Virus record (IMG/VR): IMGVR_UViG_3300033463_000016
Location: 61,995-125,994 of that record
DNA length: 64,000 bases
DNA from: a virus
Taxonomy: Duplodnaviria > Heunggongvirae > Uroviricota > Caudoviricetes
Reading direction: 5' to 3' (one strand)
Shown here piece after piece: positions 8,160-62,640 of the stretch. The stretch's first letter is position 1, and each line of letters opens with the position of its first letter. The notes beneath the pieces were generated by a model. It was not told the origin of the DNA and did no database searches. It saw only the letters and a program-made list of their open reading frames with translations. The position numbers and the translations under genes are program-made.

Positions 8160-8215
8160 ATTATAATGTAATATTTTTCGTTTGTCAACGCATTTTGTTT
8201 TATTTCTTGTAAATA
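8160..8215 (-). promoter_or_regulatory. Sigma70-type promoter (TTGACA-17-TATAAT) plus upstream AAGAAATAAAACAAAA box
   Basis: Minus strand reads AAGAAATAAAACAAAATGCG TTGACA AACGAAAAATATTACAT TATAAT; -35 at 8183-8188, -10 at 8160-8165. Confidence 0.7.
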
Positions 8216-8218
8216 ATT

Positions 8219-10249
8219 TTACAACGATGCTAATTCAATGTATTCGCCTTCAGAAATAATCTGTGTTCCAAACTTTTCCGCAGCCTTATTTTTTGAACTT
8301 CCTGAGCTTTTATCATTGGTTATTAAATAATTAGTTTTTGCCGTTACAGCCGATACGACAATTCCGCCGTGAGATTCAATATCGGCTACCAACTCTCTCC
8401 TATTTGAAAATTTGTCTAACTTGCCAGTTATACAAAACGTTTTTCCCGATAGATTATTTGATGATTTATCGAAATCAGATGAAACATCTAACTCTTTTAC
8501 CAATGCGTTAATCTCAAAAGCTATTTCAGATACAAAATTGTTAATGTCGCTGGATGTCTTTTCTCCGATTCCGGGAAGTCTGCTCCAATCAAAGTGTGTT
8601 ATTTCTCCTGCTGCCATATATAAAAACACTTCAAGAGAATTTCTCAACTCACCGCCATATAATTGGTTGACAAATTCGTATTTCTGATCCACATATTCAG
8701 AGATCGTTTTTGCCGTAGTTTTGCCTATGTTTGGAATGCCTATTGCAACGATTACATTAGATAATTTACATTTTCGGCTTTCTTCGATCGCTTGTAGTAT
8801 ATTGTCTACACTATTTTCTCCGAATCCAGGCTTTCCGATTATTTCATCACGGTGGTTTTTGAGATGATATAAGTCGGCAAATGAAGTTATATACCCCATA
8901 CTCATTAAGGCTTTGAGTCTTTCTTCTGAAATACCCACGATATTCAAACCATCTCTTGATGCAAAATTCGCTATCTTATCGTGAATCTTTTCAGGGCAGT
9001 TATCGTTTCGGCAACGCAGCACTTCTCTCCCGTTATTGTTTTCGATAACCGTTGGTTTTCCGCAAGATGGACAAACCTTCGGGATTTCGTATGTATCACT
9101 TCTCGTCAAGTTTTCCTTGATTTGTGGGATAATCTCATTTGCCTTAATAACATTGATCTTATCTCCAATGCCGAGTTGCAATTCACGAATAATACTCACG
9201 TTATTGAGTGTGGCACGGCTTACCGTTGTACCGTCGATTTCAATCGGATCGAAAATTGCCACCGGATTAACCAATCCTGTTCTGCTTGTAGACCATTCAA
9301 TATCTCTCAAAATTGTTTCATTTTCTTCTGGATAAAACTTAAAAGCCAAAGAATGACGAGGATGATGTGATGTGCTGCCGAGGCTTAATCCATACTTGAT
9401 ATTATCAAACATACCAACCATACCATCGATCGGTATGCCTAAATCATCATAAATCTTTTTCATATACTCGATCAATTCTTCACAAGTTAAATCGAGCAAT
9501 ATTGCCTTATTTCTCAATACCGGTTGTGGCGCTACAGTTGCAAATCCTAATTCTTGCAGCCACTTGATTGCGGCAAAATGTGTCGTAAATTTAACGCCAT
9601 CTGCCTTATATAGTTTCCAAGCAATAAACTGAGCGTTTCTTTTGGCAACAATACTACTATCAAAGTGTCTTGCAGTTCCGCTTGCCAGATTTCTTACATT
9701 CTTATACTCTTTTAATCCATTTGCTCTCTGATTAGCGTTGATCGCCTCAAAAGTATCTCTCGTGATAATACATTCTCCATCGACAATCAACTCATCATTA
9801 AACGGAATGGATTTCGGCAAGTTTGTGAATACTTTTGCATTGTGAGTTATATCCTCACCAACGATACCATCTCCACGACTTTCTGCTTTAACGAGTTCAC
9901 CATTGCGATAAGTAATAGAGCAAGTTAATCCATCCAACTTTGGCATAACAATATAAGTTCTATCACCAAAGAAAGATATAAAATTATTGATCTCGGTGGT
10001 TTTATCCAATGAGAGCAATTCGTGATTATGTGTAACCTTTTCTAATTTACTGATTACTGCATATCCGACACTTTGGGTCGGTGAATTAGGATATACAATG
10101 CCCGTTTCTTTTTCATATTCAGTCAGTTTATCAAATAGGGAATCATATTCCCTATCAGAAATTAAGCTCGTGTCGAAATTATAATACATATCACGACAAG
10201 TATTTAATTTCTCTATCAGAGTTTTCATTTCTCCAATCTTATCTGTCAT
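8219..10249 (-). CDS. ligA: NAD+-dependent DNA ligase
   Basis: Adenylation motif MPKLDGLTCS; Cys4 zinc finger CPSCG...CRNDNCPEK; HhH region; C-terminal BRCT (KTFCITGKL); 676 aa. Confidence 0.9.
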   Translation of the reverse strand: MTDKIGEMKTLIEKLNTCRDMYYNFDTSLISDREYDSLFDKLTEYEKETGIVYPNSPTQSVGYAVISKLEKVTHNHELLSLDKTTEINNFISFFGDRTYIVMPKLDGLTCSITYRNGELVKAESRGDGIVGEDITHNAKVFTNLPKSIPFNDELIVDGECIITRDTFEAINANQRANGLKEYKNVRNLASGTARHFDSSIVAKRNAQFIAWKLYKADGVKFTTHFAAIKWLQELGFATVAPQPVLRNKAILLDLTCEELIEYMKKIYDDLGIPIDGMVGMFDNIKYGLSLGSTSHHPRHSLAFKFYPEENETILRDIEWSTSRTGLVNPVAIFDPIEIDGTTVSRATLNNVSIIRELQLGIGDKINVIKANEIIPQIKENLTRSDTYEIPKVCPSCGKPTVIENNNGREVLRCRNDNCPEKIHDKIANFASRDGLNIVGISEERLKALMSMGYITSFADLYHLKNHRDEIIGKPGFGENSVDNILQAIEESRKCKLSNVIVAIGIPNIGKTTAKTISEYVDQKYEFVNQLYGGELRNSLEVFLYMAAGEITHFDWSRLPGIGEKTSSDINNFVSEIAFEINALVKELDVSSDFDKSSNNLSGKTFCITGKLDKFSNRRELVADIESHGGIVVSAVTAKTNYLITNDKSSGSSKNKAAEKFGTQIISEGEYIELASL

Positions 10250-10737
10250 ACTTCTACCTCAATTTCACCATCTGACTCCAAAAATCCCCAATCTCCATAG
10301 TTTTTAAGTAGCCGATAATATACAAACATATTAGGAGCATATCTCCTGTTATTAAAGATAGCATCGTCACTACCGGTATAGTGGCGCAGGATAGCAGCCG
10401 CTACGCCAGACGAGCGTGAAATCCCGGCATCACAATGCACGATGATTTTTCGCTCTTTATTTTTCTCTACAAAATCAATGATTTGCTTCGCTTGTTCATC
10501 AGTGAACAAATCATATTCCGTAACAGTGTGTCCATATACATCTCTATCATTGACGCCATCAGCATCACAAAATGAGATAAACAAAATATCTTTTACACAG
10601 TTTGCATAACTGCAAAACGGGACATTCGGGTAGTCTATATATGGAGTAAATAGTGAAATCATCACAGAGTCGTCACACCAATGGTCATTATTACAATATT
10701 CAATAGCCTTGCCACGACTCATTACAATAACATTCAT
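10246..10737 (-). CDS. Protein tyrosine / dual-specificity phosphatase
   Basis: CX5R active-site loop VHCDAGISRSSG. Confidence 0.7.
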   Translation of the reverse strand: MNVIVMSRGKAIEYCNNDHWCDDSVMISLFTPYIDYPNVPFCSYANCVKDILFISFCDADGVNDRDVYGHTVTEYDLFTDEQAKQIIDFVEKNKERKIIVHCDAGISRSSGVAAAILRHYTGSDDAIFNNRRYAPNMFVYYRLLKNYGDWGFLESDGEIEVEV

Positions 10738-11150
10738 ACTTCTATTCCCTTAAATAATATCAAATACCAACACCAAATGGTGACGATTTGCACCAAATGG
10801 ATACTCTGATCTATAATTAGATTTATGTATTTTTTGTTCGCTTTTAGGTCGTCTGTAACAGCGTGACCAACCATACTAAACACAAATGTAACAATCAACG
10901 CTGGGGTTGGTATTACAATATGTGAAATTATCCCATAAATAATAATCGGGAGATGGATCGAAAACGTCCACGAAAAGGAATGCTCAATTAATGCAACAAT
11001 ATAATCGTATTTATATAGTCTGTCCGGAGCATTTCTTTTCCACCATTCCCTTTGCTTCATATCTGCAAGGATTCCCTGTATTTTATAATCGTCGATCAAA
11101 TGGCAAAACACCATTGAAAGAAGAATCAAGAGAGATGTAGTCGATGTCAT
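10734..11150 (-). CDS. Integral membrane protein
   Basis: Several hydrophobic segments (LLILLSMVFCHL; IIIYGIISHIVIPTPALIVTFVFSMVG; IVTIWCWYLILF). Confidence 0.45.
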   Translation of the reverse strand: MTSTTSLLILLSMVFCHLIDDYKIQGILADMKQREWWKRNAPDRLYKYDYIVALIEHSFSWTFSIHLPIIIYGIISHIVIPTPALIVTFVFSMVGHAVTDDLKANKKYINLIIDQSIHLVQIVTIWCWYLILFKGIEV

Positions 11151-11160
11151 TTAGAATCCC

Positions 11161-14639: not shown

Positions 14640-14734
14640 TTTGTATTCTCCCTATTTCTGACATACTATATATAGTATATTTATATCGCTACACCACTAT
14701 ATATTGTGCCTATTTTGACGATAAAATAATGTTT

Positions 14735-17638: not shown

Positions 17639-17639
17639 A

Positions 17640-27216: not shown

Positions 27217-27315
27217 AAGGCTCGTTATGACACTGCCTGATGCTCTCCCTGCTGAGCTACAATCGCCATACGGCGAACGATAGGACTCGAACCTATGACT
27301 CTCTGGTTTTCATAT
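27217..27315 (-). ncRNA. CAGCAAT-box tRNA-like RNA, copy g
   Basis: 5' AAGGCTC TAACAGCAATTTTATATG ... ATAGGTTCGAGTCCTAT ... GGCGATTGTAGCTCAGCAGGGAGAGCA ... GAGCCTT 3'; closing stem AAGGCTC/GAGCCTT. Confidence 0.5.
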
Positions 27316-27385
27316 AAAATTGCTGTTAGAGCCTTATTTTCAACAATAAAATTGGTATTTGATTGTCATTTCATTTTCAAAAATC

Positions 27386-27491
27386 AAGACACTTTCGCGT
27401 ACCCATTAGGGTTTGAGGGACTCGAACCCTCTGAAATTAACTTTCCATAGTTGATTTGTTATCCATATCGTAAAATTGCTGTAAGTGCCTT
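27386..27491 (-). ncRNA. CAGCAAT-box tRNA-like RNA, copy h
   Basis: Begins 3 nt after tRNA-Lys CCA: 5' AAGGCAC TTACAGCAATTTTACG ... GAGGGTTCGAGTCCCTC ... GTGTCTT 3'. Confidence 0.5.
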
Positions 27492-27494
27492 ATG

Positions 27495-27569
27495 TGGTGC
27501 GCGTGATGGGAGTCGAACCCAACTAAGCACGATTAAAAGTCGTGTGCATAGCCGCTTTGCTACACGCGC
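27495..27569 (-). tRNA. tRNA-Lys (TTT), CCA encoded
   Basis: Acceptor GCGCGTG/CACGCGC, D-arm GCAA..GCAC, anticodon stem CACGA/TCGTG with loop CTTTTAA, T-loop GGGTTCGACTCCC. Confidence 0.85.
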
Positions 27570-27574
27570 ATATA

Positions 27575-27648
27575 TAGCGAGTACAAGGAGTCGAACCCTG
27601 TTTCCCCACCCGTTTCGGAGTAGCGCAATTCCGATATACTAACTCGCT
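27575..27648 (-). pseudogene. tRNA-like gene without a foldable anticodon arm
   Basis: Acceptor AGCGAGT/ACTCGCT and T-arm CAGGGTTCGACTCCTTG present; no 5-7-5 anticodon stem-loop can be formed; abuts next tRNA. Confidence 0.4.
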
Positions 27649-27722
27649 TGGAGGGTGGTATAGGATTTGAACCTATCCTGAAAGTGCCACAAACTAACGT
27701 GCTACCGCTACACTAACCACCC
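27649..27722 (-). tRNA. Probable tRNA-His (GTG); no genomically encoded G-1; CCA encoded
   Basis: Acceptor GGGTGGT/ACCACCC, D-arm GTGT AGCGGTA GCAC, anticodon loop TTGTGGC with weak 3-bp stem, T-arm ATAGGTTCAAATCCTAT; base preceding +1 is T. Confidence 0.5.
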
Positions 27723-27907
27723 ATTTTATTCTCATTATCTTTTAATAATGTTTCCAAGAATTTAATTTCATTAATTACAAACTTAAAGAAATCATATAAA
27801 CATATCTGTTGTTCTAACATTATTGAATCTTCACAAAACACACAGCATTGTGGTTGTGAATTGGTATAAACAACACGACCACAAGTATTACAAATATATT
27901 TTTTCAT
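27713..27907 (-). CDS. Small zinc-ribbon protein
   Basis: CNTCG...CCVFC pairs; 64 aa. Confidence 0.35.
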   Translation of the reverse strand: MKKYICNTCGRVVYTNSQPQCCVFCEDSIMLEQQICLYDFFKFVINEIKFLETLLKDNENKMGG

Positions 27908-27954
27908 ATAACTTCCAAAGTTTAATCATTCTGTATCTTCCGTTTGTGGCAAGA

Positions 27955-27995
27955 GCGCAAGGAATCGAACCCTGATTGAAATCTAAATCAAATAT
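27955..27995 (-). other. Orphan tRNA 3' fragment (T-arm plus acceptor plus CCA) overlapping the KptA stop
   Basis: CAGGGTTCGATTCCTTG CGCTCTTG CCA with no matching 5' half upstream. Confidence 0.45.
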
Positions 27996-28513
27996 TTTGT
28001 TGGAACCTCAGATGTGAGATATACTCCATTCTCAGATAGAAAAAATTTATATCCATCTTTATACATATCCTGCGCTGCAATTGAGAGAACAACCGGATTT
28101 CCGTGTCTTTTCCCTACCATAATTGCAGTGCTATGATCCTTTGATAAATGCACATAAAGGCGTGACATTGGTTTGATTCCATTTTTATAAATAGAATCTA
28201 AAACATTGGAACTCGTTCCGTGAAAAAGTATTTCAGGAGGGTTGACCTCTTTGAGTTCCACTTCCACATTAACTGAATGACCTTGATTGGCTCGAATCAT
28301 TGTTTTATCATTATTGAACGAATATCTATGTTTGCTGTCAGTGGCAACAATTTCTTCAAGGATAGACATATTTATTTCCGGAAACTTTATCTTTAATCCA
28401 GTAATCAATTCATTCACTTTAGCCCAACCGTGTGAATCAAGTTTAATATTTGCTACTTCCGGCTTGTGCCTTAATACAAGGCTTATAAAAATACTTACTT
28501 TTTTCAAATTCAT
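27983..28513 (-). CDS. kptA: RNA 2'-phosphotransferase (Tpt1/KptA family)
   Basis: SIFISLVLRHKPE, IRANQGHS, LFHGTS, HVHLS and RHGNPVVL family motifs; 176 aa. Confidence 0.8.
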   Translation of the reverse strand: MNLKKVSIFISLVLRHKPEVANIKLDSHGWAKVNELITGLKIKFPEINMSILEEIVATDSKHRYSFNNDKTMIRANQGHSVNVEVELKEVNPPEILFHGTSSNVLDSIYKNGIKPMSRLYVHLSKDHSTAIMVGKRHGNPVVLSIAAQDMYKDGYKFFLSENGVYLTSEVPTKYLI

Positions 28514-28564
28514 AAGTTTTACCTATTCATCGTCCTTATATGGTTTCATACTTCCACAAAATTT

Positions 28565-28807
28565 TCATCCTTGACACTCGATCCAATTCATAAAATACTG
28601 AAAAAACATATCAGAAGTGATTTCCGGCGGTGTTTCGATTATACCATCGAGTTCAGTAAGATTGGTGCGGAACATCGGTAGGAACTTAACACAAGGAGAT
28701 TGATCGCTTGTCCAACACCATTCAGCATTATTCCGGCAATGATTACACTGGTTGGATTGCTTTTTCTTATAATGACTAAATAAACTCATATCAATACTCC
28801 GTATCAC
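28565..28807 (-). CDS. Hypothetical Cys-rich protein
   Basis: 80-aa ORF with CNHC...C...C. Confidence 0.3.
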   Translation of the reverse strand: MIRSIDMSLFSHYKKKQSNQCNHCRNNAEWCWTSDQSPCVKFLPMFRTNLTELDGIIETPPEITSDMFFQYFMNWIECQG

Positions 28808-29111
28808 AATATTCGCATTTATGTCCGTGAAGTGGAGCGCCGCAATTCTTACAATTTGTGGGAGTTATTTTCTTTTGTTTAACCTCATCCATTGTTCTAA
28901 ACAAAAATCCATTATAACCGATGGCAGCATACTTATCTCTTAACATTTGTATTTGTTTACTCTTTGCTTCACATCTAAGTGCTTCAAGTTGAGAATTTCT
29001 CAATTTTAACGCTTCTTCACTTTTCCGAAACATCCGAACAATACTAAATACCGCATACACAACCAAAGAGATAGTTGCCAAAAAGAATAAAATAGTTATT
29101 ACGTTTTGCAT
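28791..29111 (-). CDS. Membrane-anchored protein with C-terminal zinc ribbon
   Basis: Start taken at internal Met (MQNVITILFFLATISLVVYAVF) because upstream ORF portion overlaps tRNA-Trp/Glu; C-terminal CKNCG...CEYC. Confidence 0.4.
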   Translation of the reverse strand: MQNVITILFFLATISLVVYAVFSIVRMFRKSEEALKLRNSQLEALRCEAKSKQIQMLRDKYAAIGYNGFLFRTMDEVKQKKITPTNCKNCGAPLHGHKCEYCDTEY

Positions 29112-29121
29112 TATTCCACCT

Positions 29122-29195
29122 TGGCAGGGCAGCGAGGAATCGAACCCCGATAAGCAGTTTTGGAGGCTGCTGTTCTTCCACTGAACTACTGCCCT
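29122..29195 (-). tRNA. tRNA-Trp (CCA), CCA end encoded
   Basis: Acceptor AGGGCAG/CTGCCCT, D-arm GTTC..GAAC, anticodon loop CTCCAAA, T-loop GGGGTTCGATTCC. Confidence 0.8.
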
Positions 29196-29282
29196 ATGAT
29201 CGGACGGTTTTAGAGTTGCCGCCCACAACTTTGAGATGATAATTTGAAGTTGTTTTATTAAGCTCGAAGAACTATGAGCCTG

Positions 29283-29357
29283 TGGTGACGGGTACGGGAA
29301 TCGAACCCGTGTTACCACCGTGAAAGGGTGATGTCTTAGCCTCTCGACTAACCCGCC
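29283..29357 (-). tRNA. tRNA-Glu (TTC), CCA encoded
   Basis: D-arm GTCGAGAGGCTAAGAC and anticodon region CCTTCACGG closely parallel E. coli tRNA-Glu; T-arm ACGGGTTCGATTCCCGT. Confidence 0.75.
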
Positions 29358-29446
29358 ATAGATTGCCGTCTTTCCGGCTGTCAGTTTGCTGGCACAGACG
29401 GCTTTTCCATACATTTTGTGAATGATGCGTAGAGGAATTACCCTCT

Positions 29447-29935: not shown

Positions 29936-29941
29936 ATATAA

Positions 29942-30035
29942 TGGCGGAGCGGGTGGGACTCGAACCCACACGCCGGGAAACCCGACTACTCAGGGATTAG
30001 CAATCCCCTATCTTACCAATTAGGCTTACCGCTCC
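29942..30035 (-). tRNA. tRNA-Ser (GCT), long variable arm, CCA encoded
   Basis: Acceptor GGAGCGG/CCGCTCC, anticodon loop TTGCTAA, extra arm, T-arm GTGGGTTCGAGTCCCAC. Confidence 0.8.
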
Positions 30036-30461: not shown

Positions 30462-30477
30462 CTCCACGAGAATATAT

Positions 30478-32831: not shown

Positions 32832-32913
32832 TCAAATTCTCCTTTATTTTGTTTTATTTCTTGAATAGAAAATATTTTTAACCGCTCATTCGCGGCTCTT
32901 AACTACATTTATA

Positions 32914-32966
32914 ATTGTAACAGATTGCTTTTCAAATGTCAATACATTTTGCTCTATTTCTTGAAT
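32914..32966 (-). promoter_or_regulatory. Sigma70-type promoter (TTGACA-17-TACAAT) plus AAGAAATAGAGCAAAA box; second box copy at 32848-32870 abuts the RBS
   Basis: -35 at 32937-32942, -10 at 32914-32919; leader hairpin CCGCGAATGAGCGG. Confidence 0.65.
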
Positions 32967-37048: not shown

Positions 37049-37092
37049 TAGAAATTCTCCTTTGTTTTAATTTTCATTTTGCTTTATTTCTT

Positions 37093-37118
37093 GAATAGCC
37101 TGAAATAAGAGCCGCATT
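37093..37118 (-). terminator. Rho-independent terminator
   Basis: Minus strand GCCGCAGAAATGCGGC followed by TCTTATTT, directly after stop of 37133..38140. Confidence 0.6.
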
Positions 37119-37132
37119 TCTGCGGCACTATT

Positions 37133-38140
37133 TCAATTTTGATCTAAATACATTTTCAAATAGTTCTTGACCTCTGCTGGGCTAATACTGTATGGAGCGA
37201 CGCCAAATTCAACGGCATAGGACATCAACTCGGTAATATCATCACTGTTTCTTACCGACAAAATGAGTTCCCTTGCCCTCTCTTTACCGCACTTCTTCAC
37301 AATATAATCATAGCAGCCAAGCCAAAAAATATTTTTATATGTTGTTTTCAAACCATAGCCATTCCTTATATACTCAGACAACAATTTATTCAAAGCAATG
37401 GCGATAACGGATTCCTCCCGATTATCGAAATCATCCTCTAATCTCGGTTCCACTACAAAATGTAGATAGCTGTTTCGCCAGCTTCGCATATAAACTGTTC
37501 GTCTTGCGGTTTGATACTCGGTAGCCTTATGATTTTTCTGCAATAATGAGATGATCCTACTACTTACCTTAACCGTTCGACCAGGCAAAGTAATTATTTC
37601 CGCACGCAGATTAATATCCTGTTCATTAAGATGGATTACTTCACCTAAGCTATTAAAACCACAGTAAAATAGTCCGGTAATGAGTTCAGTATAATCGGCG
37701 CGGTCATTCATACCATTCTTCCTCATATCGGCAAATATATTATCGAAATCCTGCCAAGTGACCGGCTTTGTCGATATTTCAAGAACACGCATAAAACCTT
37801 TCGTACCTTTTAATTCCGGCGATCTCAGCCAAATAATTATCGGCTCAACATTGAATGAGTACCATTCACAGATCGAAATAAGGCACGTTCTCACGTATTT
37901 ATAGTCGGACATAATAATCTGAGCCTTTGCGTCTGGTTTAAGTGACTTTGTAAGCAGCGCCCGAATCAAATAAATAAACTCATCTTGATCCATATCGACC
38001 AACTCTTTGCCGATCGATCTTTCATACTCAAACAGAATAGGAATATCAACGAATTTCTTTACATTCGCAATACGACTCTGAGATAATCCGCTACCCTCAT
38101 AAAATCCATCAATAATTTCTCTCGTGGACATTTTACCCAT
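37133..38140 (-). CDS. Hypothetical protein
   Basis: 335-aa ORF. Confidence 0.4.
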   Translation of the reverse strand: MGKMSTREIIDGFYEGSGLSQSRIANVKKFVDIPILFEYERSIGKELVDMDQDEFIYLIRALLTKSLKPDAKAQIIMSDYKYVRTCLISICEWYSFNVEPIIIWLRSPELKGTKGFMRVLEISTKPVTWQDFDNIFADMRKNGMNDRADYTELITGLFYCGFNSLGEVIHLNEQDINLRAEIITLPGRTVKVSSRIISLLQKNHKATEYQTARRTVYMRSWRNSYLHFVVEPRLEDDFDNREESVIAIALNKLLSEYIRNGYGLKTTYKNIFWLGCYDYIVKKCGKERARELILSVRNSDDITELMSYAVEFGVAPYSISPAEVKNYLKMYLDQN

Positions 38141-38200
38141 AACAACACCTCATTTATAATACGATTATAGCAATAACGATATATTTTGTCAAGAAATAAA

Positions 38201-38572
38201 TCAAGAATGTAATAAGATTGGAAATTGCACGAGGATCGCATTTGTGATGTCAGTCAAAGTATCTTCATCCGTGATGGCTCCGATACATCTATCCAGACGT
38301 TCAATATTGATTGTTTGGATTTGTTCTACCAACATTGTACTCGGAGCATTCAAACCATATGCGTGATGATTCCAAAGCTCAACGTGTACCGGCAACTTCC
38401 GTTTGTGCATTCTCGATGTTATTGGAATGACATTCAACGTAGTGCTATATGTATTATTTTTGTCATTCGAGAGGATAAAAACAGGTCTATATCCACCCTG
38501 CACGCTACCCTCATTTGTGTTCAGGTAGCATAGCCAGATTTCACCGCAACGCGGATGATTAGTGCGCAGCAT
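38201..38572 (-). CDS. MazF/PemK-family endoribonuclease toxin-like protein
   Basis: GEIWLCYLNTNEGSVQGGYRPVFILSNDKNN...VIPITS matches PemK/MazF core. Confidence 0.75.
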   Translation of the reverse strand: MLRTNHPRCGEIWLCYLNTNEGSVQGGYRPVFILSNDKNNTYSTTLNVIPITSRMHKRKLPVHVELWNHHAYGLNAPSTMLVEQIQTINIERLDRCIGAITDEDTLTDITNAILVQFPILLHS

Positions 38573-40591: not shown

Positions 40592-41566
40592 TTATTTGCT
40601 CACTCCTTCGACAAGGCTGAGAATTTCATTCATTGCATCCAAATGGATAGCAGGATCGGTGATCCCCGCATTTTCCGCTCCCATCTGATAAGCCATAGAC
40701 AGAATATCTCTTAAATCTCCGATGTCCAGAGTAACCATAGGGTTGCCAGATTCGGATACGAACAGTTTTCCGTCCCTGATGTGAGTTGCATAGAAATCTC
40801 CAAAATCAGCGAAGTAACTGTTTACCTTGTCTTTTGTTAATCCAATATATCTCTTAGTCGTTTTTGTATCACTGTGATTATAGATAGTCTGCAAAAGCTC
40901 CATACTATCATAATCGTTTGGATGAAGGATACGGCTAATCTTACCAAATGTTTTTCTGGTGCTGTGTGTACCGATGTTGTATTCGATGCCAACACTAACG
41001 GCAGCACGCTTTAGAGCTTTTCTCCAACCGTCAGCAGAAATTACGTTACCCTTACCGGTTCCGCTCAACTGCAAAAATACGGGATTCTGATAGGCGTTAT
41101 CAGCCGGATTACAATTCGTCTTTTCCAAATAAAGAGTTATGGCGTCACGGCAAGCCGAGTTGATAAGAGGATTCGCAAGTTTGTCTGTCTTTTCCTCGAC
41201 GATTTCAAGCAGTTCATTCCGAAATGATCCGGTTGCCGGATTGAAAAAGTGTTCCCATCTCAGGCTCAAAGTATCGCCGATACGCCTTGCCATATTCAGA
41301 GAAATGACGAAAAGCAGATAGTGAAGCCACGCCTCATTCGCTGTGAAGTAGTCGATCATCTTCTTCAAATCTTCCACTTCAAACGGATAAACCTCTGATT
41401 TCTTGCCCTTTTTCTTATTCTGGACAATCCTCTTTGGTTTGCCGGACTTTGTGAGTTTCGGCGTATTCTCGTTTTTCGGTTCGACCGGCATTTCCGCGTA
41501 GAAAGTTTGACCTGGAAATAGCGGTGAAGTCACAATAACGGTATTGGTTTCCATTGTCTGTTTCAT
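40592..41566 (-). CDS. Tyrosine recombinase / phage integrase family protein
   Basis: ARRIGDTLSLRWEHF (Arg box), HSTRKTFGK (HxxR), TKRYIGLT (catalytic Tyr region). Confidence 0.65.
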   Translation of the reverse strand: MKQTMETNTVIVTSPLFPGQTFYAEMPVEPKNENTPKLTKSGKPKRIVQNKKKGKKSEVYPFEVEDLKKMIDYFTANEAWLHYLLFVISLNMARRIGDTLSLRWEHFFNPATGSFRNELLEIVEEKTDKLANPLINSACRDAITLYLEKTNCNPADNAYQNPVFLQLSGTGKGNVISADGWRKALKRAAVSVGIEYNIGTHSTRKTFGKISRILHPNDYDSMELLQTIYNHSDTKTTKRYIGLTKDKVNSYFADFGDFYATHIRDGKLFVSESGNPMVTLDIGDLRDILSMAYQMGAENAGITDPAIHLDAMNEILSLVEGVSK

Positions 41567-41596: not shown

Positions 41597-41648
41597 ATTA
41601 TATCACAAGTTTTCGAGAAAATCAACACTTTTCTTTATTTCTTGAATA
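41597..41648 (-). promoter_or_regulatory. Sigma70-type promoter (TTGATT-17-TGn-TATAAT) plus AAGAAATAAAGAAAAG box
   Basis: -35 at 41620-41625, extended -10 TGTGATATAAT at 41597-41607. Confidence 0.6.
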
Positions 41649-46471: not shown

Positions 46472-48322
46472 TTAAAAAATCGGTTTATAAGTGTTGATGA
46501 TTGGCTTGATGCCTTTTTCCTTGAAGTAGTCGATAATCACATCATACTGCTTCTTATCACAAGACAAGAATTTGGTATGCCTTGTGTAAACTCCGTTTTC
46601 TCCGTTCTCGGTATATTCCCACATCAGGCTTTCGGGATAATCCACCCAACCATCATAGATGAGAACATCACGATAAAAATATTTGGAATACAGCCCTCTC
46701 TTGCGCTCTGGCGTGAAGAACATATTAACGGCTTTGTCATACTGTGCATATGATCCATTCTTGAATCCGCTATATGTGACTTTTGATTTCGTTATCATTC
46801 CAAAATCGCCAATCTGAATAATCGTGATCTTCTGTCCCTGCCTAATCTTTGCCGTTTCAAACTGATGTTGAATGTCAATCGGCTCGGTAAGAATACGATA
46901 AAGGGCTTCTTTGATGGTAGGATTCTCGATAGCCTGGATAACACCAGCGTCAAACCGAAGATTCATCGATTCAATGCTTTCGATTAAATGCAAGCGGAAC
47001 AGATCGAACGAAATTGATACGATGGTTTCCGGTGTGCAGTATTCATTGTTCACGAAAATCTCATCAATGACCGTCATCAGGTTGATCGCTGCGGCTTTGT
47101 TTGCTTCCGCTTCTTCATCGGCGATTCCCTTGTTTCCTTCGTAGTTATCCGCAACTTTGGATTCAGAATCGACCTCATAAGTGTATCTGGCGTAACTGAA
47201 TCCTTCCGGATTGATGACCAATTTCAGTTCGTCGCCGCAATAAATGGCTACACACTTTGTATTGTACCATTCGACCGTTTCACGTTCTTCTGCGCTCATA
47301 CGATTGAAATCCATCATTGTCTGGATTCTGTAATCGTCGGTAGCGCCGCCGCCCATCTGTTCAAGGAATGAGAAATCCGTGATAAGGTGCTGAATGAACA
47401 GATCATAAAGATGCTCGGAGAGATATACACGTCTTGCAACTCGACAATTCTCACGTTTGTGATCGGCGTAATAATCATCGTCTTTTTCACTGAGATTTGA
47501 TACCTTGTTGGCTACCAAACGAACATTCATAACCCACATATCACAATCTTCCGATTTGTAACCAGCTTCGATCTCGGCGGCTTCTTCGGCTCTGCGCTTC
47601 TCGACGATCTCCGCCTCTCTACGCTCGATCTCCATCTGTTTCATTCTTTCCTGATACTCGCGTTCTTTACGTTCTGCTTCTGCCTTTTCAAACGCTGCCA
47701 GATCAATCCTGAACTGTTCGGAGATAGTATGCTCGGCGACGGTTTCATCGCGCTGCTCATATTCGTACTTATTTACGATATTGCTTATATGATAAGAACC
47801 ATAGAAGTTAACATCAAAATAGTCAGAATAGTAATCAGAATTGTTATAGTTATAACTTTCTACAAATCTATAAACATATTCCGCGATAGCCTTAACCTCT
47901 ACACTCTCACGATCCCAAGGGCTAGATTTCATCAGAACGTCAATAGAATTATAGTCTGATCTAACCGACCATTTGCACATCGGGAATCTGGATCGGATAT
48001 GCTTCCGGATAATTGCGGCGATCTCTTTCGTATCATTGATATGATACTTCTCATAGTTATTTCCGATCTCGTCCGTTCTCGTCATCTGGAACAGATTATA
48101 CTGTTCAGATTCCTTTTTGCTCTCCTTCTTGATTTCCTCGCAGTTTTCAAGGCTCCTGGCGAATGCCATTCTTTCCTCGGTCTGCTTCGCATACCACATT
48201 TTTTGCTTGCCGCTCCATCTAAATCCCAGCTCTTTCATCTGTGCCAGAACTTCGCTGCTCGGCTTGCTGTCGAATCTGATCTCGATCCCGTTTTTCTCGT
48301 TATTGATTGTAATTGTAGTCAT
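46472..48322 (-). CDS. Large hypothetical protein
   Basis: 616-aa ORF; no recognisable motif. Confidence 0.45.
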   Translation of the reverse strand: MTTITINNEKNGIEIRFDSKPSSEVLAQMKELGFRWSGKQKMWYAKQTEERMAFARSLENCEEIKKESKKESEQYNLFQMTRTDEIGNNYEKYHINDTKEIAAIIRKHIRSRFPMCKWSVRSDYNSIDVLMKSSPWDRESVEVKAIAEYVYRFVESYNYNNSDYYSDYFDVNFYGSYHISNIVNKYEYEQRDETVAEHTISEQFRIDLAAFEKAEAERKEREYQERMKQMEIERREAEIVEKRRAEEAAEIEAGYKSEDCDMWVMNVRLVANKVSNLSEKDDDYYADHKRENCRVARRVYLSEHLYDLFIQHLITDFSFLEQMGGGATDDYRIQTMMDFNRMSAEERETVEWYNTKCVAIYCGDELKLVINPEGFSYARYTYEVDSESKVADNYEGNKGIADEEAEANKAAAINLMTVIDEIFVNNEYCTPETIVSISFDLFRLHLIESIESMNLRFDAGVIQAIENPTIKEALYRILTEPIDIQHQFETAKIRQGQKITIIQIGDFGMITKSKVTYSGFKNGSYAQYDKAVNMFFTPERKRGLYSKYFYRDVLIYDGWVDYPESLMWEYTENGENGVYTRHTKFLSCDKKQYDVIIDYFKEKGIKPIINTYKPIF

Positions 48323-48372: not shown

Positions 48373-48430
48373 ATTATACTACAAATCATTCAATTTGTCA
48401 ATCACTTTGGACTATTTCTTGAATAATTTT
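48373..48430 (-). promoter_or_regulatory. Sigma70-type promoter (TTGACA-17-TATAAT) plus AAGAAATAGTCCAAAG box
   Basis: -35 at 48396-48401, -10 at 48373-48378. Confidence 0.65.
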
Positions 48431-48783: not shown

Positions 48784-49116
48784 TCAATCAAATTCAACTT
48801 GTTCAAATAACGCCATTTGCAAGGCGTCGATTTCTTCCGCCTGTTCTGAATTTTTGCAATACTCGAAAAGAGTATCACTATCATAATAGTCTTTTCCGTC
48901 GTCGATATACCAATCTTCCCATTCGCCTTCATCTTCGTTATACATCTGCAATCCGCCCGTATTAGCATAATCCGGCTTGATATTATTGTTATACTGAAAA
49001 CAATCATACGCTGCCAAAATATCCAGGACTTTCTTGCCCTCTACCGGAGATTGAACAGGAATATAAAACGGCTTCATCGGCACTTGCGGAATCCACCATA
49101 CCCGTAGTTTTTCCAT
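48784..49116 (-). CDS. Hypothetical acidic protein
   Basis: 110-aa ORF. Confidence 0.3.
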   Translation of the reverse strand: MEKLRVWWIPQVPMKPFYIPVQSPVEGKKVLDILAAYDCFQYNNNIKPDYANTGGLQMYNEDEGEWEDWYIDDGKDYYDSDTLFEYCKNSEQAEEIDALQMALFEQVEFD

Positions 49117-49284: not shown

Positions 49285-49605
49285 TCATATTGATTGCCTC
49301 TTGTATTCGTAATCTTCCACGCCGGTGATATACTTCTCATAATCTACCCGGATGAGCTTTTCGCCACCGACCGTCTGGACGCCACTACCGAATGCGATCC
49401 TGCCATTTGTGCCGACAAAGTTGATCGTCATATTTCCGTTGACCGCCATAATTTCGGCAAAACATCTTTCTGTTGGTTTCTTGCCATCTGCAAACATAAA
49501 GCCTTCATCCTCGGCTTGTTGCATAAAGCGTTCACCGATTGCCACATTTGCCAGATACACATATACCCTGCCATTTTTCTTGCTTAATTCTTTAATCGTT
49601 CTCAT
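49285..49605 (-). CDS. Hypothetical protein
   Basis: 106-aa ORF. Confidence 0.3.
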   Translation of the reverse strand: MRTIKELSKKNGRVYVYLANVAIGERFMQQAEDEGFMFADGKKPTERCFAEIMAVNGNMTINFVGTNGRIAFGSGVQTVGGEKLIRVDYEKYITGVEDYEYKRQSI

Positions 49606-49829
49606 TGTATCAATCCTTTACAAAATAATGATAATAGAGTATGCAAGAAAAAAAATCCCATCGTCATCGACGGGATCAGCGTCCCATCGTTCAAGCATTA
49701 CCACCTTGCACACATCATCAATTTTTCCATAAATTGACGGTTAATATGTAGGTTGGTGTATGGTCATCGGGCTTGTCCCTCGCATACTCTATATGGTACT
49801 TTTAATTATAGCCGGAGGATTCCGATCTG

Positions 49830-51026
49830 TCAAGCGTTATCTTTCATAAATTCTATCAGCTCATCACTATGATCTTTGCACTCATTGATTCTCATAGGCA
49901 CTACTACGGTATGATATTCCTTGTTGTAGAAATGAATCATAGCCATAGAATTATTAAATGTTGCGACCTGGCAATCAGTAATGTCGGCATTGTCCTTAAA
50001 TATCTTCAAAACTATTCCGACGTATTCAGGGTCAAGCATTCGCACGAATCCATCAGGAATATCCCCCTGATATGATAACTCATCCATTGTCCGGTATTTA
50101 CTGTTGGAATAGCCGGAATACAGTTTGTCGCCGATCTTGTGGATAATCGTACCCATTCGGCAGCGTGTCGAATTACATTTCTCATACTGCGCCATTACAT
50201 CATAAACTTCGGCAATATTTAGATAGAATCGAACATCTGCCTTCTTGGTGTTGTTGATAATATCCATATACCTCATAAATGATCCGTTGGATGTGTCAGG
50301 TAGTTTTACGGAATATTTGAAGTCCTTGCCCTGGAACGTTCCCCAATCCGCCTTATCGGTAATATAAACGTCGATTTCCTCATCAGCCTTGTAATTCGTG
50401 ATTTTCTTGAAATTCGCAAGAAATCCGGTAGTTTTGCCCGGAATGAGCATTTGAAAATTCATCCGCTCAAATTTCCAATCAATATGACGGAGGATAAGTG
50501 TGAATCCGCTGATTGTGAGCATTGCCATATTTTCCGGATCAATGCAATAACACTGATATATGGGCTTCGCATTGTTTTCGGATAGACTCGGTGCAAGAGT
50601 CTGCATTGTATCGATTAGCTCACGTTTTCCAACTCTGAAGGCAATGCTGCCGGTGCTGGGCTTTTCCAAAAGCTGATCCGCGTCAGAATTGTACGTCCGG
50701 ATTTCACTGCGCTTCTTATCCGTTGACGCCTTGAAATATTTGCCGTCAATCACTTCAATAGTAATAAATCCGTTGATTGATAACAGGGGCTTGACCTCGG
50801 ATGTATCGACGATCGCAAAACCGCCTTCAATCACACGTGCAGAATCCACCGTGATGGTGAGAATCTCATCCAACTGCTGCGCCGAGAATGTGACCGTTCC
50901 GGCGTTCTGATCGGCTGTAATCACGATATAGAATAACTGTGATAAATGTCCGCCCTTCTTACCAGATACAACCATAACACGCTCCATAGCGGTCTGGAAT
51001 GTCTTTGAATCAATAGTGAATTTCAT
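49830..51026 (-). CDS. DNA polymerase sliding clamp (DnaN-like beta clamp)
   Basis: N-terminus MKFTIDSKTFQTAMERV...LSQLFYIVITADQNAGTVTFSAQQLDEIL resembles beta-clamp domain I; 398 aa consistent with three-domain clamp. Confidence 0.5.
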   Translation of the reverse strand: MKFTIDSKTFQTAMERVMVVSGKKGGHLSQLFYIVITADQNAGTVTFSAQQLDEILTITVDSARVIEGGFAIVDTSEVKPLLSINGFITIEVIDGKYFKASTDKKRSEIRTYNSDADQLLEKPSTGSIAFRVGKRELIDTMQTLAPSLSENNAKPIYQCYCIDPENMAMLTISGFTLILRHIDWKFERMNFQMLIPGKTTGFLANFKKITNYKADEEIDVYITDKADWGTFQGKDFKYSVKLPDTSNGSFMRYMDIINNTKKADVRFYLNIAEVYDVMAQYEKCNSTRCRMGTIIHKIGDKLYSGYSNSKYRTMDELSYQGDIPDGFVRMLDPEYVGIVLKIFKDNADITDCQVATFNNSMAMIHFYNKEYHTVVVPMRINECKDHSDELIEFMKDNA

Positions 51027-52574: not shown

Positions 52575-52655
52575 TTTTACAACCTCATTTCTATTTTGTT
52601 TTATTTCTTGTTTTGCTAATTATTTATAGGGCTGCCGCCCTAATCCGTTATCTAT

Positions 52656-52712
52656 ATTATATACTAAATAGTATGTTATGTCAACATTATTTTGCTTTAT
52701 TTCTTGAATTAA
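52656..52712 (-). promoter_or_regulatory. Sigma70-type promoter (TTGACA-17-TATAAT) with ATACTA..TAGTAT operator-like palindrome, plus AAGAAATAAAGCAAAA box
   Basis: -35 at 52679-52684, -10 at 52656-52661; spacer ACATACTATTTAGTAT. Confidence 0.65.
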
Positions 52713-54826: not shown

Positions 54827-54919
54827 AATAAAGCTCCTTTTTTGATTGCTTTGTGATTTTGTTTTATTTCTTGAATAGATTTGTTTTAATAGGCGGATGA
54901 CCGCCTATCTGATAGTATA

Positions 54920-54948
54920 AGTATATCACATACTAAAATGTATGTCAA
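54920..54948 (-). promoter_or_regulatory. Sigma70-type promoter (TTGACA-17-TATACT) with ACATAC..GTATGT palindrome in spacer
   Basis: -35 at 54943-54948, -10 at 54920-54925; leader hairpin TAGGCGGTCATCCGCCTA; AAGAAATAAAACAAAA box at 54862-54882 next to the RBS. Confidence 0.65.
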
Positions 54949-57837: not shown

Positions 57838-58142
57838 TGTCGTATCTCCTTTTGCTTTATTTCTTGATTATGCTCTGAAAAATTCAGCCGTATAATCGGT
57901 GTCCTGGTATCTTGTTTCGATTGTGCCGACCTTGACGGCTCTGGTAATTTTATATCCGTGATGTGCTGCTGTTTTCTTTGCTCTGGATATACATCCGGGA
58001 GAATCAACCAAATTTCCGAAGATCAAAACCTCGTCGCCGCCGGTGCGCTTGCCGTAAACTCTCAAAGTGTTCATAATATCCTCCGTTTTGCTTTATTTCT
58101 TGAATTGTCCGCCGTGTTACCGTTGGATCAACTTACAAGTAT

Positions 58143-58171
58143 ATATTATCACATACTATTTAGTATGTCAA
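58143..58171 (-). promoter_or_regulatory. Sigma70-type promoter (TTGACA-17-TAATAT) with perfect ACATACTA-AA-TAGTATGT palindrome
   Basis: -35 at 58166-58171, -10 at 58143-58148; AAGAAATAAAGCAAAA box at 58089-58108 adjacent to RBS GGAGG of 57868..58074. Confidence 0.65.
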
Positions 58172-61713: not shown

Positions 61714-62157
61714 TTACATCAATCTTGTGTATGTCGGAATGCTGCCGACCTTTTCCAGATTCTCCGCCGTCCATTCCTCGGCGTATTCCTCGGCGTCATA
61801 TTCTCCGCTGATCCTGCAAAGCGTCGCATACTTTTTGGAATTTTCCGGCTCTCCCATCTCGATCCGCTTGACCGGTACACTCGTGTACATTCCGCTCCCT
61901 GTCGGGCGAAGAAGGTTTACACACAATTCCGGAATGTATCTGCCGGTTTCAACTTTCCAGGTACAACCGTGAGCATTTGTCCGTTCCTCGTATTCTTTTG
62001 TGTACCAGAGGCGAAATTCAAGATAGATATTTTCCGTGATCTTGATCGTCCTTGTGAGCGTCTTTTCACTCCAGATTAAACAGTATTGTAAATCAAACTT
62101 GAATCCGCCCTTCGCCTGATTGTTCCATTTGATTGCCTGTTCTCTTGTGATTTTCAT
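61714..62157 (-). CDS. Hypothetical protein
   Basis: 147-aa ORF. Confidence 0.3.
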   Translation of the reverse strand: MKITREQAIKWNNQAKGGFKFDLQYCLIWSEKTLTRTIKITENIYLEFRLWYTKEYEERTNAHGCTWKVETGRYIPELCVNLLRPTGSGMYTSVPVKRIEMGEPENSKKYATLCRISGEYDAEEYAEEWTAENLEKVGSIPTYTRLM

Positions 62158-62254
62158 ATTGATCCCCTTTTCCGTTTACTATTTCATTTTGCTTTATTTC
62201 TTGATTTGTTGTTATTGTTTGGCGGGATTTTCCGCTCCCGCCCGGCGGCTGCTG

Positions 62255-62557
62255 TTAATATCTATCTGCAAATGCTCCGATGACCGTGATCGTTGTGTCA
62301 ATGTCGTGCTTTTCGTCATCATAGAAATTCCGCTTGATTTTGATAATTGCGGCTTTTGTCATAACCTTTCTTAATCCGTCAACTGATACCTCATTCTTTT
62401 CTATCCAGATCAACAACTCATTCGGCGTATTGAATCCAGGCTGCCGGAGAATTTCCGTCGCTCTATTGACCGCCTCCTGCTCCGTTAGGCTGCTTTTGGG
62501 ATCAATCAACTTGTGATCCATTCCGGTAATATAATAGACTTTTGATGTTACTGTCAT
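62255..62557 (-). CDS. Hypothetical protein
   Basis: 100-aa ORF with RBS AAGGAGG; driven by promoter at 62585-62613. Confidence 0.35.
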   Translation of the reverse strand: MTVTSKVYYITGMDHKLIDPKSSLTEQEAVNRATEILRQPGFNTPNELLIWIEKNEVSVDGLRKVMTKAAIIKIKRNFYDDEKHDIDTTITVIGAFADRY

Positions 62558-62584
62558 ATCAATTCCTCCTTGCTTGAAAAACTC

Positions 62585-62640
62585 CGTTTTCTAAATTATA
62601 ACCGATACTTTTTAGTATGTCAATACCTTTTTGCTTTATT
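62585..62640 (-). promoter_or_regulatory. Sigma70-type consensus promoter (TTGACA-17-TATAAT) with ATACT-AAAA-AGTAT palindrome plus AAGAAATAAAGCAAAA box
   Basis: -35 at 62608-62613, -10 at 62585-62590, box 62619-62638. Confidence 0.7.

Follow-up and report, generated by a model that had tools for sequence, protein, structure and literature searches.

A repeated, strand-oriented box in the early region of an uncultured phage and its probable role as a repressor operator

Promoters and leaders of the early region

We analysed a window of 64,000 nt (the whole stretch under study, with positions counted from its first letter) from an uncultured phage whose circular genome of ~171 kb encodes ~17-19 tRNAs and one tmRNA. 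Most early proteins are ORFans, and the genes are all co-directional. The recognisable genes include those for p335 (335 aa; 37133..38140, minus strand), a PemK/MazF-like toxin (38201-38572), the tyrosine recombinase p324 (PF00589; 40592..41566, minus strand) and a 616-aa LPD29 protein (46472..48322, minus strand), the orthologue of SPR spr_90 (33% identity). The recombinase p324 shows a weak resemblance to YopP and is well conserved in related phages; by eye it keeps the catalytic residues R, HxxR and Y, which makes it a probable enzyme. Just outside the window, an operon transcribed divergently encodes a YonO homologue with a DxDGD motif (581 aa aligned at 26% identity, E = 1e-27).

A search of the window for TTGACA-N16-18-TAYAAT returned eight exact matches where 0.11 were expected, none of them on the plus strand. 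Named by the start of the -35, which is the higher coordinate, they are 8188 (8160..8188), 25303 (25275..25303) and 32942 (32914..32942), the latter two TTGACA-17-TACAAT, 38192 (38164..38192; p335 gene), 48401 (48373..48401; LPD29 gene), 49833 (49805..49833), and 52684 (52656..52684) and 62623 (62595..62623), both TTGACA-17-TATAAT. Three more are near-perfect: 41625 (41597..41625; TTGATT-17-TATAAT with TGn; p324 gene), 54948 (54920..54948; TTGACA-17-TATACT) and 58171 (58143..58171; TTGACA-17-TAATAT with a TGn extended -10). The window thus holds 11 near-consensus sigma-70 promoters, on the minus strand only. The first-pass annotation had proposed at least nine such promoters, and they are indeed a genuine family; its coordinates were 5-15 nt off, yet the same sites were meant, and 38192 and 49833 had been missed.

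Several leaders contain short GC stems, which stand at a constant 14-16 nt upstream of several copies of the box described below. On the minus strand, these include a 9-bp stem at 54888..54909 (leader -17 kcal/mol, z = -5.3; ~15 nt 5' of box 54875) and AGGGCggcaGCCCT at 52627..52642 (~14 nt 5' of box 52612), both without a U-tract, a hairpin at 32880..32897 (~16 nt 5' of box 32865), of which the related phage L081 has the same stem with another loop, and GCCGCAgaaaTGCGGC at 37111..37126, past the p335 gene and 15 nt 5' of box 37095. These stems had been regarded as possible attenuators. They are present, but mostly lack a U-tract, and terminator-like sites with a T-tail are no more frequent than expected (15 vs 14.5). 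The leader hairpins do not qualify as canonical attenuators; the only recognisable one is a SAM riboswitch at 49681-49799, in the leader driven by promoter 49833.

A repeated box in two contexts

Ten of the 11 strong promoters have, within ~100 bp, a copy of a box with the consensus (A)TTCAAGAAATAAAGCAAAA(TG), a conserved stretch of ~23 nt with an information content of 29-34 bits; promoter 49833 has none. Searching the window with AAGAAATAAAGCAAAA at <=2 mismatches gave 16 matches where 0.28 were expected; all but one are on the minus strand. The 19-mer box search gave 16 intergenic minus-strand copies, in 16/16 of which CAAGAAATA is unchanged, as well as one degenerate intragenic and one inverted copy. 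Spacers and flanks differ and are unrelated from one copy to another, therefore cassette duplication cannot explain the identity of the boxes.

Seven copies lie 2-5 nt 5' of a -35 element and occupy about -40 to -60. Named by their higher coordinate, they are 62647 (62629..62647, 19/19 identical positions, 5 nt from promoter 62623), 52708 (52690..52708, 19/19, 5 nt from 52684), 48423 (48405..48423, 15/19, 3 nt from 48401), 41646 (41628..41646, 17/19, 2 nt from 41625), 32965 (32947..32965, 18/19, 4 nt from 32942), 25327 (25309..25327, 18/19, 5 nt from 25303) and 8211 (8193..8211, 17/19, 4 nt from 8188).

The other nine copies lie in leaders or between genes, 5' of a Shine-Dalgarno sequence (SD) with no intervening promoter and 11-46 nt upstream of start codons. 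Two are found in leaders as the sole box: 58104 (58086..58104, 19/19; promoter 58171), immediately 5' of the SD, and 54875 (54857..54875, 18/19; promoter 54948), past the hairpin. Three are second boxes: 52612 (52594..52612, 16/19; promoter 52684), where the order is box-promoter-hairpin-box-SD; 32865 (32847..32865, 18/19; promoter 32942), a layout kept at the orthologous gene in L081; and 25189 (25171..25189, 17/19; promoter 25303), past a long hairpin. The remaining four are 62205 (62187..62205, 18/19), after a GC hairpin and 5' of the SD of a 147-aa gene, 57868 (57850..57868, 18/19), intergenic and immediately 5' of an SD, 37095 (37077..37095, 19/19), after the p335 gene and its hairpin and 5' of the SD of a 135-aa gene, and 7855 (7837..7855, 17/19), intergenic. 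No sigma-70-like promoter was found within 160 nt upstream of these four. If they are operators, they must work as roadblocks or serve some other purpose. A 20-nt box upstream of the -35 or in the leader upstream of the ribosome-binding site had been noted before, and both contexts are real, with 7 and 9 copies.

The degenerate minus-strand copy (48115..48133, 15/19) lies within the LPD29 ORF, which is preceded by the order box-promoter-(partial box)-SD. Some 10 related IMG/VR phages each have their own, different box in the same positions, so that a cross-matrix of boxes by genomes is diagonal, and in these relatives the box is either proximal to the -35 or one helical turn further out. Own-box copies also occur at the intragenic position in L025 (18/18), L004 (15/16) and L003 (19/20), near-perfect though the encoded linker peptides differ. 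The inverted copy (38188..38206, plus strand, 16/19) is the sole plus-strand match in the window and covers the -35 of the p335 promoter, which has no direct box. We regard it as a putative autoregulatory site.

Candidate repressor and comparison with SPbeta and phi3T

Every p335 promoter, in this phage and in its relatives, has a box at the -35, inverted here and in L003. No Pfam or PHROG family was found for p335. Its integrase (CB+CAT) fold most resembles those of phi3T SroF and SPbeta MrpR, with ~13% identity to phi3T SroF in structural alignment, and by eye the protein appears to have lost the catalytic residues. Sequence comparison detects no homology between p335 and YopR/SroF (BLASTP E = 1.4; hhalign probability <1%); it is by fold, synteny and the architecture of the sites that they are linked. 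In relatives, p335 is found together with the boxes, and it evolves fast, at 27-55% identity versus 51-78% for its neighbours. Phages whose p335 is 68-70% identical have one box in common, a co-variation that is confounded by phylogeny. Previously, a wHTH protein at 39414-40040 had been named as a candidate regulator. It belongs to no Pfam family and has no homologue even in the closest relative, L003, which carries a similar box; p335 is the better candidate.

In SPbeta, the master repressor MrpR/YopR/SroF binds SPBRE (SPbeta repeated element), defined by MrpR ChAP-seq targets (Kohm et al., NAR 2023, PMC10516654). We found the SPbeta repeat A[CT]AAA[AT]AATATGTATA upstream of yonT, yonX (two copies), aimR, yopM, yopV, yorE and yonP, which are among these targets. 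SPR has the same positional classes, including upstream of the orthologue of the 616-aa gene. Like SPBRE, the window box is a dispersed, asymmetric, A/T-rich repeat of 15+ bp in the same orientation as the downstream gene, and the positional classes recur: box-6 nt-(-35) at aimR, box-promoter-box-SD at yonX, and promoter-box-SD at yopV and yopM. Likewise, the context includes the LPD29 gene, an integrase resembling YopP, and a YonO polymerase transcribed divergently from a promoter that bears a box. In contrast to SPbeta, the box sequence is unrelated (ACAAAAAATATGTATA), and p335 has its own promoter, whereas the SPbeta repressor is the last gene of the yopM-R (sroA-F) operon. Neither AimR/AimP nor a Sar-like antirepressor was recognised in this phage, and LexA boxes are not enriched (18 matches vs 21 expected). 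Judged by its sequence, the phage is a very distant relative of SPbeta in architecture.

For phi3T SroF, a 26-bp operator has been defined crystallographically; the protein is a monomer that reads 24/26 bp and recognises A-tracts (Chmielowska et al., bioRxiv 10.1101/2025.11.27.690993; PDB 9rd5, 9rgl). Such binding fits an asymmetric, oriented box with A-tracts and explains its high information content. The phi3T box occurs in ~17-19 co-oriented copies per 50 kb in the same contexts (box-promoter-box-SD, box-SD). Its operator core TTAAGAATAAAAATAAAAT and the window box TCAAGAAATAAAGCAAAAT are identical at 14/19 positions without gaps; each contains two A-tracts, and they share their register to the -35. 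Unlike in phi3T, the Sar antirepressor and the SOS arms were not found here, and the binding role is predicted. SPbeta and phi3T, too, differ in their boxes, and their SroF proteins share only 29% identity.

Together, the motif statistics, positions and strandedness, the boxes of the relatives, the SPBRE/SroF layout, the p335 fold and the SPbeta-like synteny, all of them shown by the analysis, suggest with a probability of about 0.7 that a monomeric, SroF/MrpR (YopR)-type repressor with an integrase fold, which the phage itself encodes and which is most likely p335, uses the box as its operator. Among the alternatives raised in the first-pass annotation, a regulator binding site fits best. On this inference, p335 would bind the box, binding would repress, and the system would control lysogeny; no prophage copy or host of this phage was found, so that the role in lysogeny is a predicted one. 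The early genes would be read by host sigma-A RNA polymerase from the near-consensus promoters, and the repressor would wrap the long, asymmetric, A-tract-rich site. Binding at boxes abutting a -35 would occlude the UP-element/-35 region, and at leader or intergenic boxes it would block promoter escape or read-through. The inverted box over the repressor's own -35 would provide negative autoregulation, and the pairing of a private box with a diverged p335 in each phage might create immunity specificities. A very distant, uncultured relative of 171 kb would then most likely share a form of control that has been described to date only in SPbeta-type phages of Bacillus.

Other readings of the box and a second motif

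We give a slim chance to the box being a promoter, or a promoter element, of a phage-specific transcription machine such as a YonO-type single-subunit RNA polymerase, working in tandem with the host-type promoters or alone. Like T7/T3/SP6-type promoters, the boxes are oriented sequences of ~20 nt that are lineage-specific, differ between related phages and precede genes, and they are strictly co-oriented with transcription; the YonO homologue nearby and the four genes with a box but no sigma-70 promoter would also fit. However, the register of the box to the host-type -35 is fixed (2-5 nt, or one helical turn more in relatives), one copy is inverted over the -35 of the p335 promoter, and the yonO-like operon itself begins at a sigma-70 promoter with a box upstream. 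Furthermore, it is the repressor MrpR/SroF that binds the elements at the equivalent positions of SPbeta and phi3T, and YonO is reported to read the late structural genes rather than early regions such as these.

An equally slim chance goes to binding by another phage protein, for instance p324 (at arm- or core-type sites) or a small regulator, with p335 having a different target. The p324 gene is part of the same module and driven by a box-bearing promoter, and the many early ORFans offer further candidates. Against this, p324 is 51-74% identical among phages with unrelated boxes and probably an enzyme, the protein at 39414-40040 is absent even from L003, and it is p335 whose fold matches the known box-binding repressors and whose promoter always carries a box.

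Slightly less probable is that the box serves only as an A-rich UP element upstream of promoters or as an A-rich translational enhancer in leaders, with no dedicated protein and with gene conversion keeping the copies identical. An A-rich stretch that covers about -40 to -60 at seven promoters, its placement in relatives either proximal or one helical turn out, and its predicted unpaired state in leaders would agree with this; at those seven promoters the operator probably overlaps any UP function there is. UP elements are degenerate, host-determined and found upstream of promoters only. The window box, in contrast, hardly varies within a phage yet differs from one phage to the next, and it also turns up in leaders, at intergenic sites, within an ORF and, in one case, in inverted orientation. 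The suggestion that it is not only an UP element was borne out by an information content of 29-34 bits and unchanging G and C positions, more than an UP element needs, and by the 9/16 copies away from a promoter; the unrelated spacers and flanks and the co-occurrence of a cognate, fast-evolving SroF-fold protein speak against this reading as well.

A role in RNA, also raised earlier, is the least likely. Nine copies near start codons, possible read-through into the upstream copies and constantly spaced GC hairpins would suit a leader motif through which a phage RNA-binding protein or nuclease such as the PemK/MazF-like toxin governs processing, stability or translation. However, the box is predicted to be unpaired with no structure or covariation found, and seven copies are located 5' of the transcription start, in a fixed 2-5 nt register to the -35 that indicates a DNA-level constraint. 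The inverted copy would not be in sense orientation in the RNA, sites of the MazF family measure 3-7 nt, and among phages with different boxes PemK remains 56-78% conserved. The start-associated sequences (SAS) of cluster K mycobacteriophages (Pope et al. 2011, PMC3203893) are also conserved asymmetric repeats just upstream of many start codons. SAS overlap the ribosome-binding site and do not lie upstream of -35 elements, and no integrase-fold repressor is known to be associated with them.

In addition to the operator that we propose for p335, five of the most upstream promoters carry an ACATACT-N4-AGTATGT palindrome, a putative separate, second operator of a probably dimeric regulator. A search for ATACTA-N-TAGTAT gave 3 matches against 0.02 expected. 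At promoter 58171 the palindrome is a perfect 18-mer (ACATACTAAATAGTATGT, 58151-58168), and at 52684 (ACATACTATTTAGTAT) the core is perfect (52661-52674) and displaced 3 nt toward the -10. The copies at 54948 (CATACATTTTAGTATG, 54929-54944) and 62623 (ACATACTAAAAAGTATCG, 62603-62620) are imperfect, and a fifth is located on the first early promoter, just beyond the window. An inverted repeat shared by the four promoters in the window had been taken as the mark of one regulon under a common repressor; a known repressor system (SPBRE/SroF) finds its counterpart in the box rather than in the palindrome. The promoters with the palindrome do form a distinct class, and half-sites of a similar kind are present in the relatives L011 and L025.

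The repeated box and the promoters of the window

All genes of the 64-kb window lie on the minus strand, as do all eight matches to TTGACA-N16-18-TAYAAT, against 0.11 expected in the window. We find eleven strong sigma-70/sigma-A promoters (named here by the start of the -35), each intergenic or at the end of a gene; those at 41625, 54948 and 58171 are one or two bases off consensus. The first-pass annotation had described this family with nine members; the family holds, with coordinates that were 5-15 nt off and with promoters 38192 and 49833 missed. Its observations as a whole are confirmed, its interpretation only in part.

The A-rich box that adjoins these promoters, AAGAAATAAAGCAAAA, has 16 matches in the window at up to two mismatches, 15 of them on the minus strand, against 0.28 expected. 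When the 16 intergenic minus-strand copies are aligned, conservation extends over ~23 nt, (A)TTCAAGAAATAAAGCAAAA(TG), worth 29-34 bits, and CAAGAAATA is invariant across all 16. Seven copies end 2-5 nt ahead of a -35. The other nine stand 11-46 nt ahead of a start codon with no intervening promoter, five in the leader of an upstream promoter and four between genes; upstream of these four orphan boxes we found no sigma-70-like promoter within 160 nt, weak ones included. At three loci the layout is box, promoter, hairpin, box and SD. The plus strand has a single copy, at 38188-38206, which overlaps the -35 of promoter 38192, and a degenerate copy at 48133 lies inside the ORF of the 616-aa LPD29 protein.

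The copies next to a -35 invite the reading of a pure UP element, and those ahead of start codons that of a translational enhancer. UP elements sit only at about -40 to -60, are degenerate and are determined by the host, whereas 9/16 box copies lie away from promoters, the information content is high, one copy is inverted, one is inside an ORF and the box is specific to each phage. The earlier suspicion that the box is not only an UP element is thus borne out, the UP-element or enhancer reading is the less likely one, and a repeated box adjoining a -35 should not be presumed to be an UP element. The nine copies ahead of start codons would suit an RNA motif; an Rfam search found no family that covers the box or the leaders. 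The same box recurs ahead of -35 elements, and we consider this reading less likely too.

Lineage-specific boxes and the candidate repressor p335

A search of IMG/VR with the 616-aa protein returned ~32 related contigs at 41-58% amino-acid identity, none of which carries the box of the phage studied here (W). The exact 19-mer has two unrelated single matches in IMG/VR, and as far as sequence searches reach the box is private to W. About ten of the related contigs each have an A-rich box of their own, on the coding strand and in the same two contexts as in W: CAAGAAATATCTCGAAA in L003, AAATAAATCTGAAAAACC in L025, AAAATAATTTGGAATAACC in L020 and, with ~14 copies in 22 kb at up to two mismatches, AATTAAATCAGAAAAA in L004. 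When the boxes are cross-matched against the genomes, the matrix is sharply diagonal. Furthermore, a near-perfect copy of the own box occurs at the same position inside the LPD29 ORF of L025 (18/18), L004 (15/16) and L003 (19/20); because the encoded linker peptides differ, selection at these intra-ORF boxes acts on the DNA. In some relatives the distance from box to -35 is ~15 nt rather than ~4 nt, one helical turn further out. Two relatives without the box module, L019 and L028, carry 14-16 copies of GGTGCATCCTCAGCTACAGGAGAT in ~22 kb, possibly a CRISPR-like array or a repeat, either tandem or coding.

One protein accompanies the boxes. The 335-aa p335 (37133-38140, minus strand) has only ten homologues among 5.8 billion clusters and belongs to no Pfam or PHROG family. 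In relatives it is always found with the tyrosine recombinase p324 and PemK, and only in phages having boxes. It is 27-55% identical across them, about twice the divergence of its neighbours, and one box is common to the three phages in which p335 is 68-70% identical. Every p335 promoter bears a box at the -35, which is inverted in W and L003 and has the direct orientation in most relatives; this suggests autoregulation. A scan of bacterial genomes for the family gave one match, in a probably mis-binned rumen MAG, and yielded no host and no prophage evidence.

Could another protein bind the box? The 'wHTH' protein 39414-40040, put forward earlier as the candidate regulator, has no Pfam family and no homologue in any relative, and we dropped it. 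Likewise p324 (40592-41566, minus strand) is 51-74% identical among phages with different boxes, too conserved to track them. A Pfam scan of 30 early-region proteins recognised no sigma factor, polymerase or classic HTH protein; almost all are ORFans. We regard binding by a different protein as less likely.

Likeness to the SroF/MrpR repressors of SPbeta-like phages

The AF2 model of p335 is a confident one (pLDDT 88.8) and shows two domains (CB+CAT) in the tyrosine-recombinase fold, with SroF/MrpR as the closest match: in a Foldseek search 'Phi3T SroF bound to DNA' and 'SroF-Sar complex' rank first. At the sequence level homology to YopR/SroF is not significant (BLASTP E = 1.4; hhalign probability 0.4-0.8%, E = 0.07-0.15, with the alignment collinear over 138-177 columns), nor is homology between p335 and p324, even when profiles are compared; SroF of SPbeta and SroF of phi3T are themselves just 29% identical. 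PF00589 has no match in p335 at E < 0.01 and matches p324 at 4.6e-11. Judged by eye, the box-I Arg position of p335 is N in W and not conserved in the family, and the catalytic residues of p324 look intact. As an analogue of MrpR, p324 was rejected, with no similarity to YopR and a weak one to YopP.

To our knowledge, the first accounts of repressors of this type, a dead integrase that acts as a monomer on a long asymmetric operator, date from 2023-2025 and concern Bacillus SPbeta/arbitrium phages alone. MrpR (also YopR or SroF) is the master repressor of SPbeta and binds the repeated element SPBRE; it is a monomer of tyrosine-recombinase fold whose recombinase activity has been lost (PMC10516654). 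In the phi3T SroF-DNA structure of a 2025 preprint (10.1101/2025.11.27.690993), SroF surrounds the DNA as a monomer and reads out 24 of the 26 bp of CAGTAATTTTATTTTTATTCTTAATG, which has two A-tracts.

We located the SPBRE repeat in 50 kb of SPBc2 as A[CT]AAA[AT]AATATGTATA, upstream of seven MrpR-target genes. At aimR it stands 6 nt ahead of the -35, at yonX it flanks the promoter on either side, at yopV and yopM it falls between -10 and SD, and for yonP/yonO it is on the opposite strand. SPR displays the same pattern, with box, promoter, box and SD ahead of the orthologue of the W 616-aa gene. Likewise, the phi3T core AAGAATAAAAATAAAAT has about 17-19 co-oriented copies per 50 kb, some next to -35 elements, others on either side of a promoter or immediately ahead of SDs. 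This core and the W box are identical at 14/19 positions without gaps and stand in matching register to the -35. The W box resembles the SroF/MrpR-SPBRE operators in being long, asymmetric and rich in A-tracts, with many dispersed copies co-oriented with the genes, and the placement of copies next to the -35 and/or between -10 and SD is common to W, SPbeta, SPR and phi3T.

The genomic setting points the same way. Besides its LPD29 (yonX/yopA) gene, whose product shares 33% identity with spr_90 of Bacillus phage SPR, W has a YopP-like integrase in p324 (E = 0.003 against YopP) and a divergent YonO-type single-subunit RNA polymerase. The latter, of 937 aa, is encoded ~4-7 kb past the right edge of the window (L208 3221-6034, minus strand) and is 26% identical to YonO over 581 aa (E = 1e-27), with a DxDGD motif and a faint PF05183 match. 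Its gene is divergent from the early genes, as in SPbeta, and on all these grounds we take W for a very distant phage of SPbeta-like architecture. W differs from SPbeta in that we found neither a Sar antirepressor under a LexA box nor the arbitrium genes AimR/AimP: the LexA/SOS (Cheo-box) pattern has 18 matches against 21.3 expected, none at a promoter, and Pfam recognised no AimR-like family among the 30 proteins. A Sar analogue may be among the many small acidic ORFans of W.

Such a polymerase in the genome, and boxes between genes where no sigma-70-like promoter was seen, raise the possibility that the box is itself a YonO-type promoter. The yonO-like operon starts from an opposite-strand sigma-70 promoter that bears the box (L208 ~7631-7652), as seven promoters of the window do, and this reading is the less likely. 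From the sequence and the structural match we infer instead that the boxes are operators of p335, a monomeric SroF-like repressor with a presumed role in lysogeny. Next to a -35, p335 would cover the UP/-35 region, and at leader or intergenic sites its binding would stop promoter escape or read-through; on its own promoter it would regulate itself. The regulon would reach past the window on both sides and include the promoter of the yonO-like operon.

The feature is best classed as a sequence-divergent SroF/MrpR-SPBRE repressor-operator system, an extension of a recently described system well outside Bacillus phages with many lineage-specific operator-repressor pairs. If this is true, the same regulatory logic operates in far-diverged uncultured metagenomic phages of ~150-170 kb, through a repressor beyond sequence-level recognition in that family, and at least ten lineage-specific pairs have diversified. 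The early regulons and immunity groups of such phages could then be annotated from sequence alone, and the pairs would offer a test case for protein-operator co-evolution and a naturally occurring set of monomeric DNA-binding proteins, orthogonal to one another, with ~23-bp operators. A bolder and rather improbable idea is that the box serves two purposes, with p335 at intergenic and intra-ORF sites forming programmable roadblocks or insulators, or with host polymerase handing over to the YonO-type polymerase at orphan boxes; this would amount to genome-wide partitioning of transcription in a large, possibly non-lysogenic phage, and box/p335 pairs would define incompatibility groups among gut/rumen phages.

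A second operator, leaders and the wider genome

The inverted repeat noted earlier at four promoters is real, two of its copies being imperfect. The palindrome ACATACTAAATAGTATGT, written ACATACTA..TAGTATGT in short form, has three matches in the window against 0.02 expected and spans the -35/spacer at four promoters: 58171, where it is perfect, 52684, and the two imperfect cases 54948 and 62623. We take this class for a second operator, independent of the box. Similar half-sites occur in L011 and L025. At 14663-14678, in the leader of a 155-aa gene with no strong promoter nearby, ATACTATATATAGTAT has the same half-sites around a centre 4 nt longer. A different palindrome, tAGTAAAtgAgTTACTa, occupies roughly +1 to +17 at most early promoters of L004 (for example 1520-1540), L005, L009, L010, L011, L020, L025 and L027, is missing from W, L003 and every p335 promoter, and is probably another operator layer.

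The leader hairpins, read earlier as possible attenuators, are present and short. A role as intrinsic terminators or attenuators finds no support: most have no U-tract, and terminator-like sites in the window are at chance level (15 against 14.5 expected). A conserved leader at 38573-38741 (minus strand), upstream of the PemK/MazF-like toxin gene (38201-38572), matches no Rfam family. It has a long-range helix GGGCUGGA...UCCAGCCC, with compensatory changes in 5/9 pairs across eight phages, and an invariant GUUACAUA; it may serve the toxin as a regulatory or antitoxin-like RNA.

A 10-kb slice of the window had no megablast match among 50,697 phage genomes. The window belongs to a 171,080-bp metagenomic contig, ENA ERZ27257207 k141_8416588 (loci L082, L208 and L209), whose coordinates it fits only as a circle with a 141-bp terminal overlap; because the locus coordinates wrap in this way, the genome is probably circular, which suggests a complete circle of ~170.9 kb. 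Recognisable genes, besides the PemK/MazF toxin and p324, include an NAD-dependent ligase and, all on the minus strand, those for a PurZ-like adenylosuccinate synthetase (PF00709, phrog_1211; 245-1450), a Ro60/TROVE-like RNA-binding protein (25327-26853), an SPFH/Band-7 protein (31167-32831), NAMPT (33722-35239) and a gp17-like superinfection-exclusion protein (48784-49116). A cluster of about 17-19 tRNA genes (21863-31095, minus strand) contains a tmRNA (29447-29935, minus strand; RF00023, 87.5 bits), and a wcaG RNA match at 29639-29731 falls within the tmRNA match.

A SAM riboswitch (49681-49799, minus strand; RF00162, 47.1 bits) and its terminator (49654-49677, minus strand), the single convincing minus-strand terminator-like site, lie downstream of promoter 49805-49833 (minus strand), the sole strong promoter without a box. 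The riboswitch precedes a 106-aa ORF (49285-49605), an arrangement that recurs in relatives, and an AdoMet synthetase gene is found just past the left edge of the window (L209 11687-12829).
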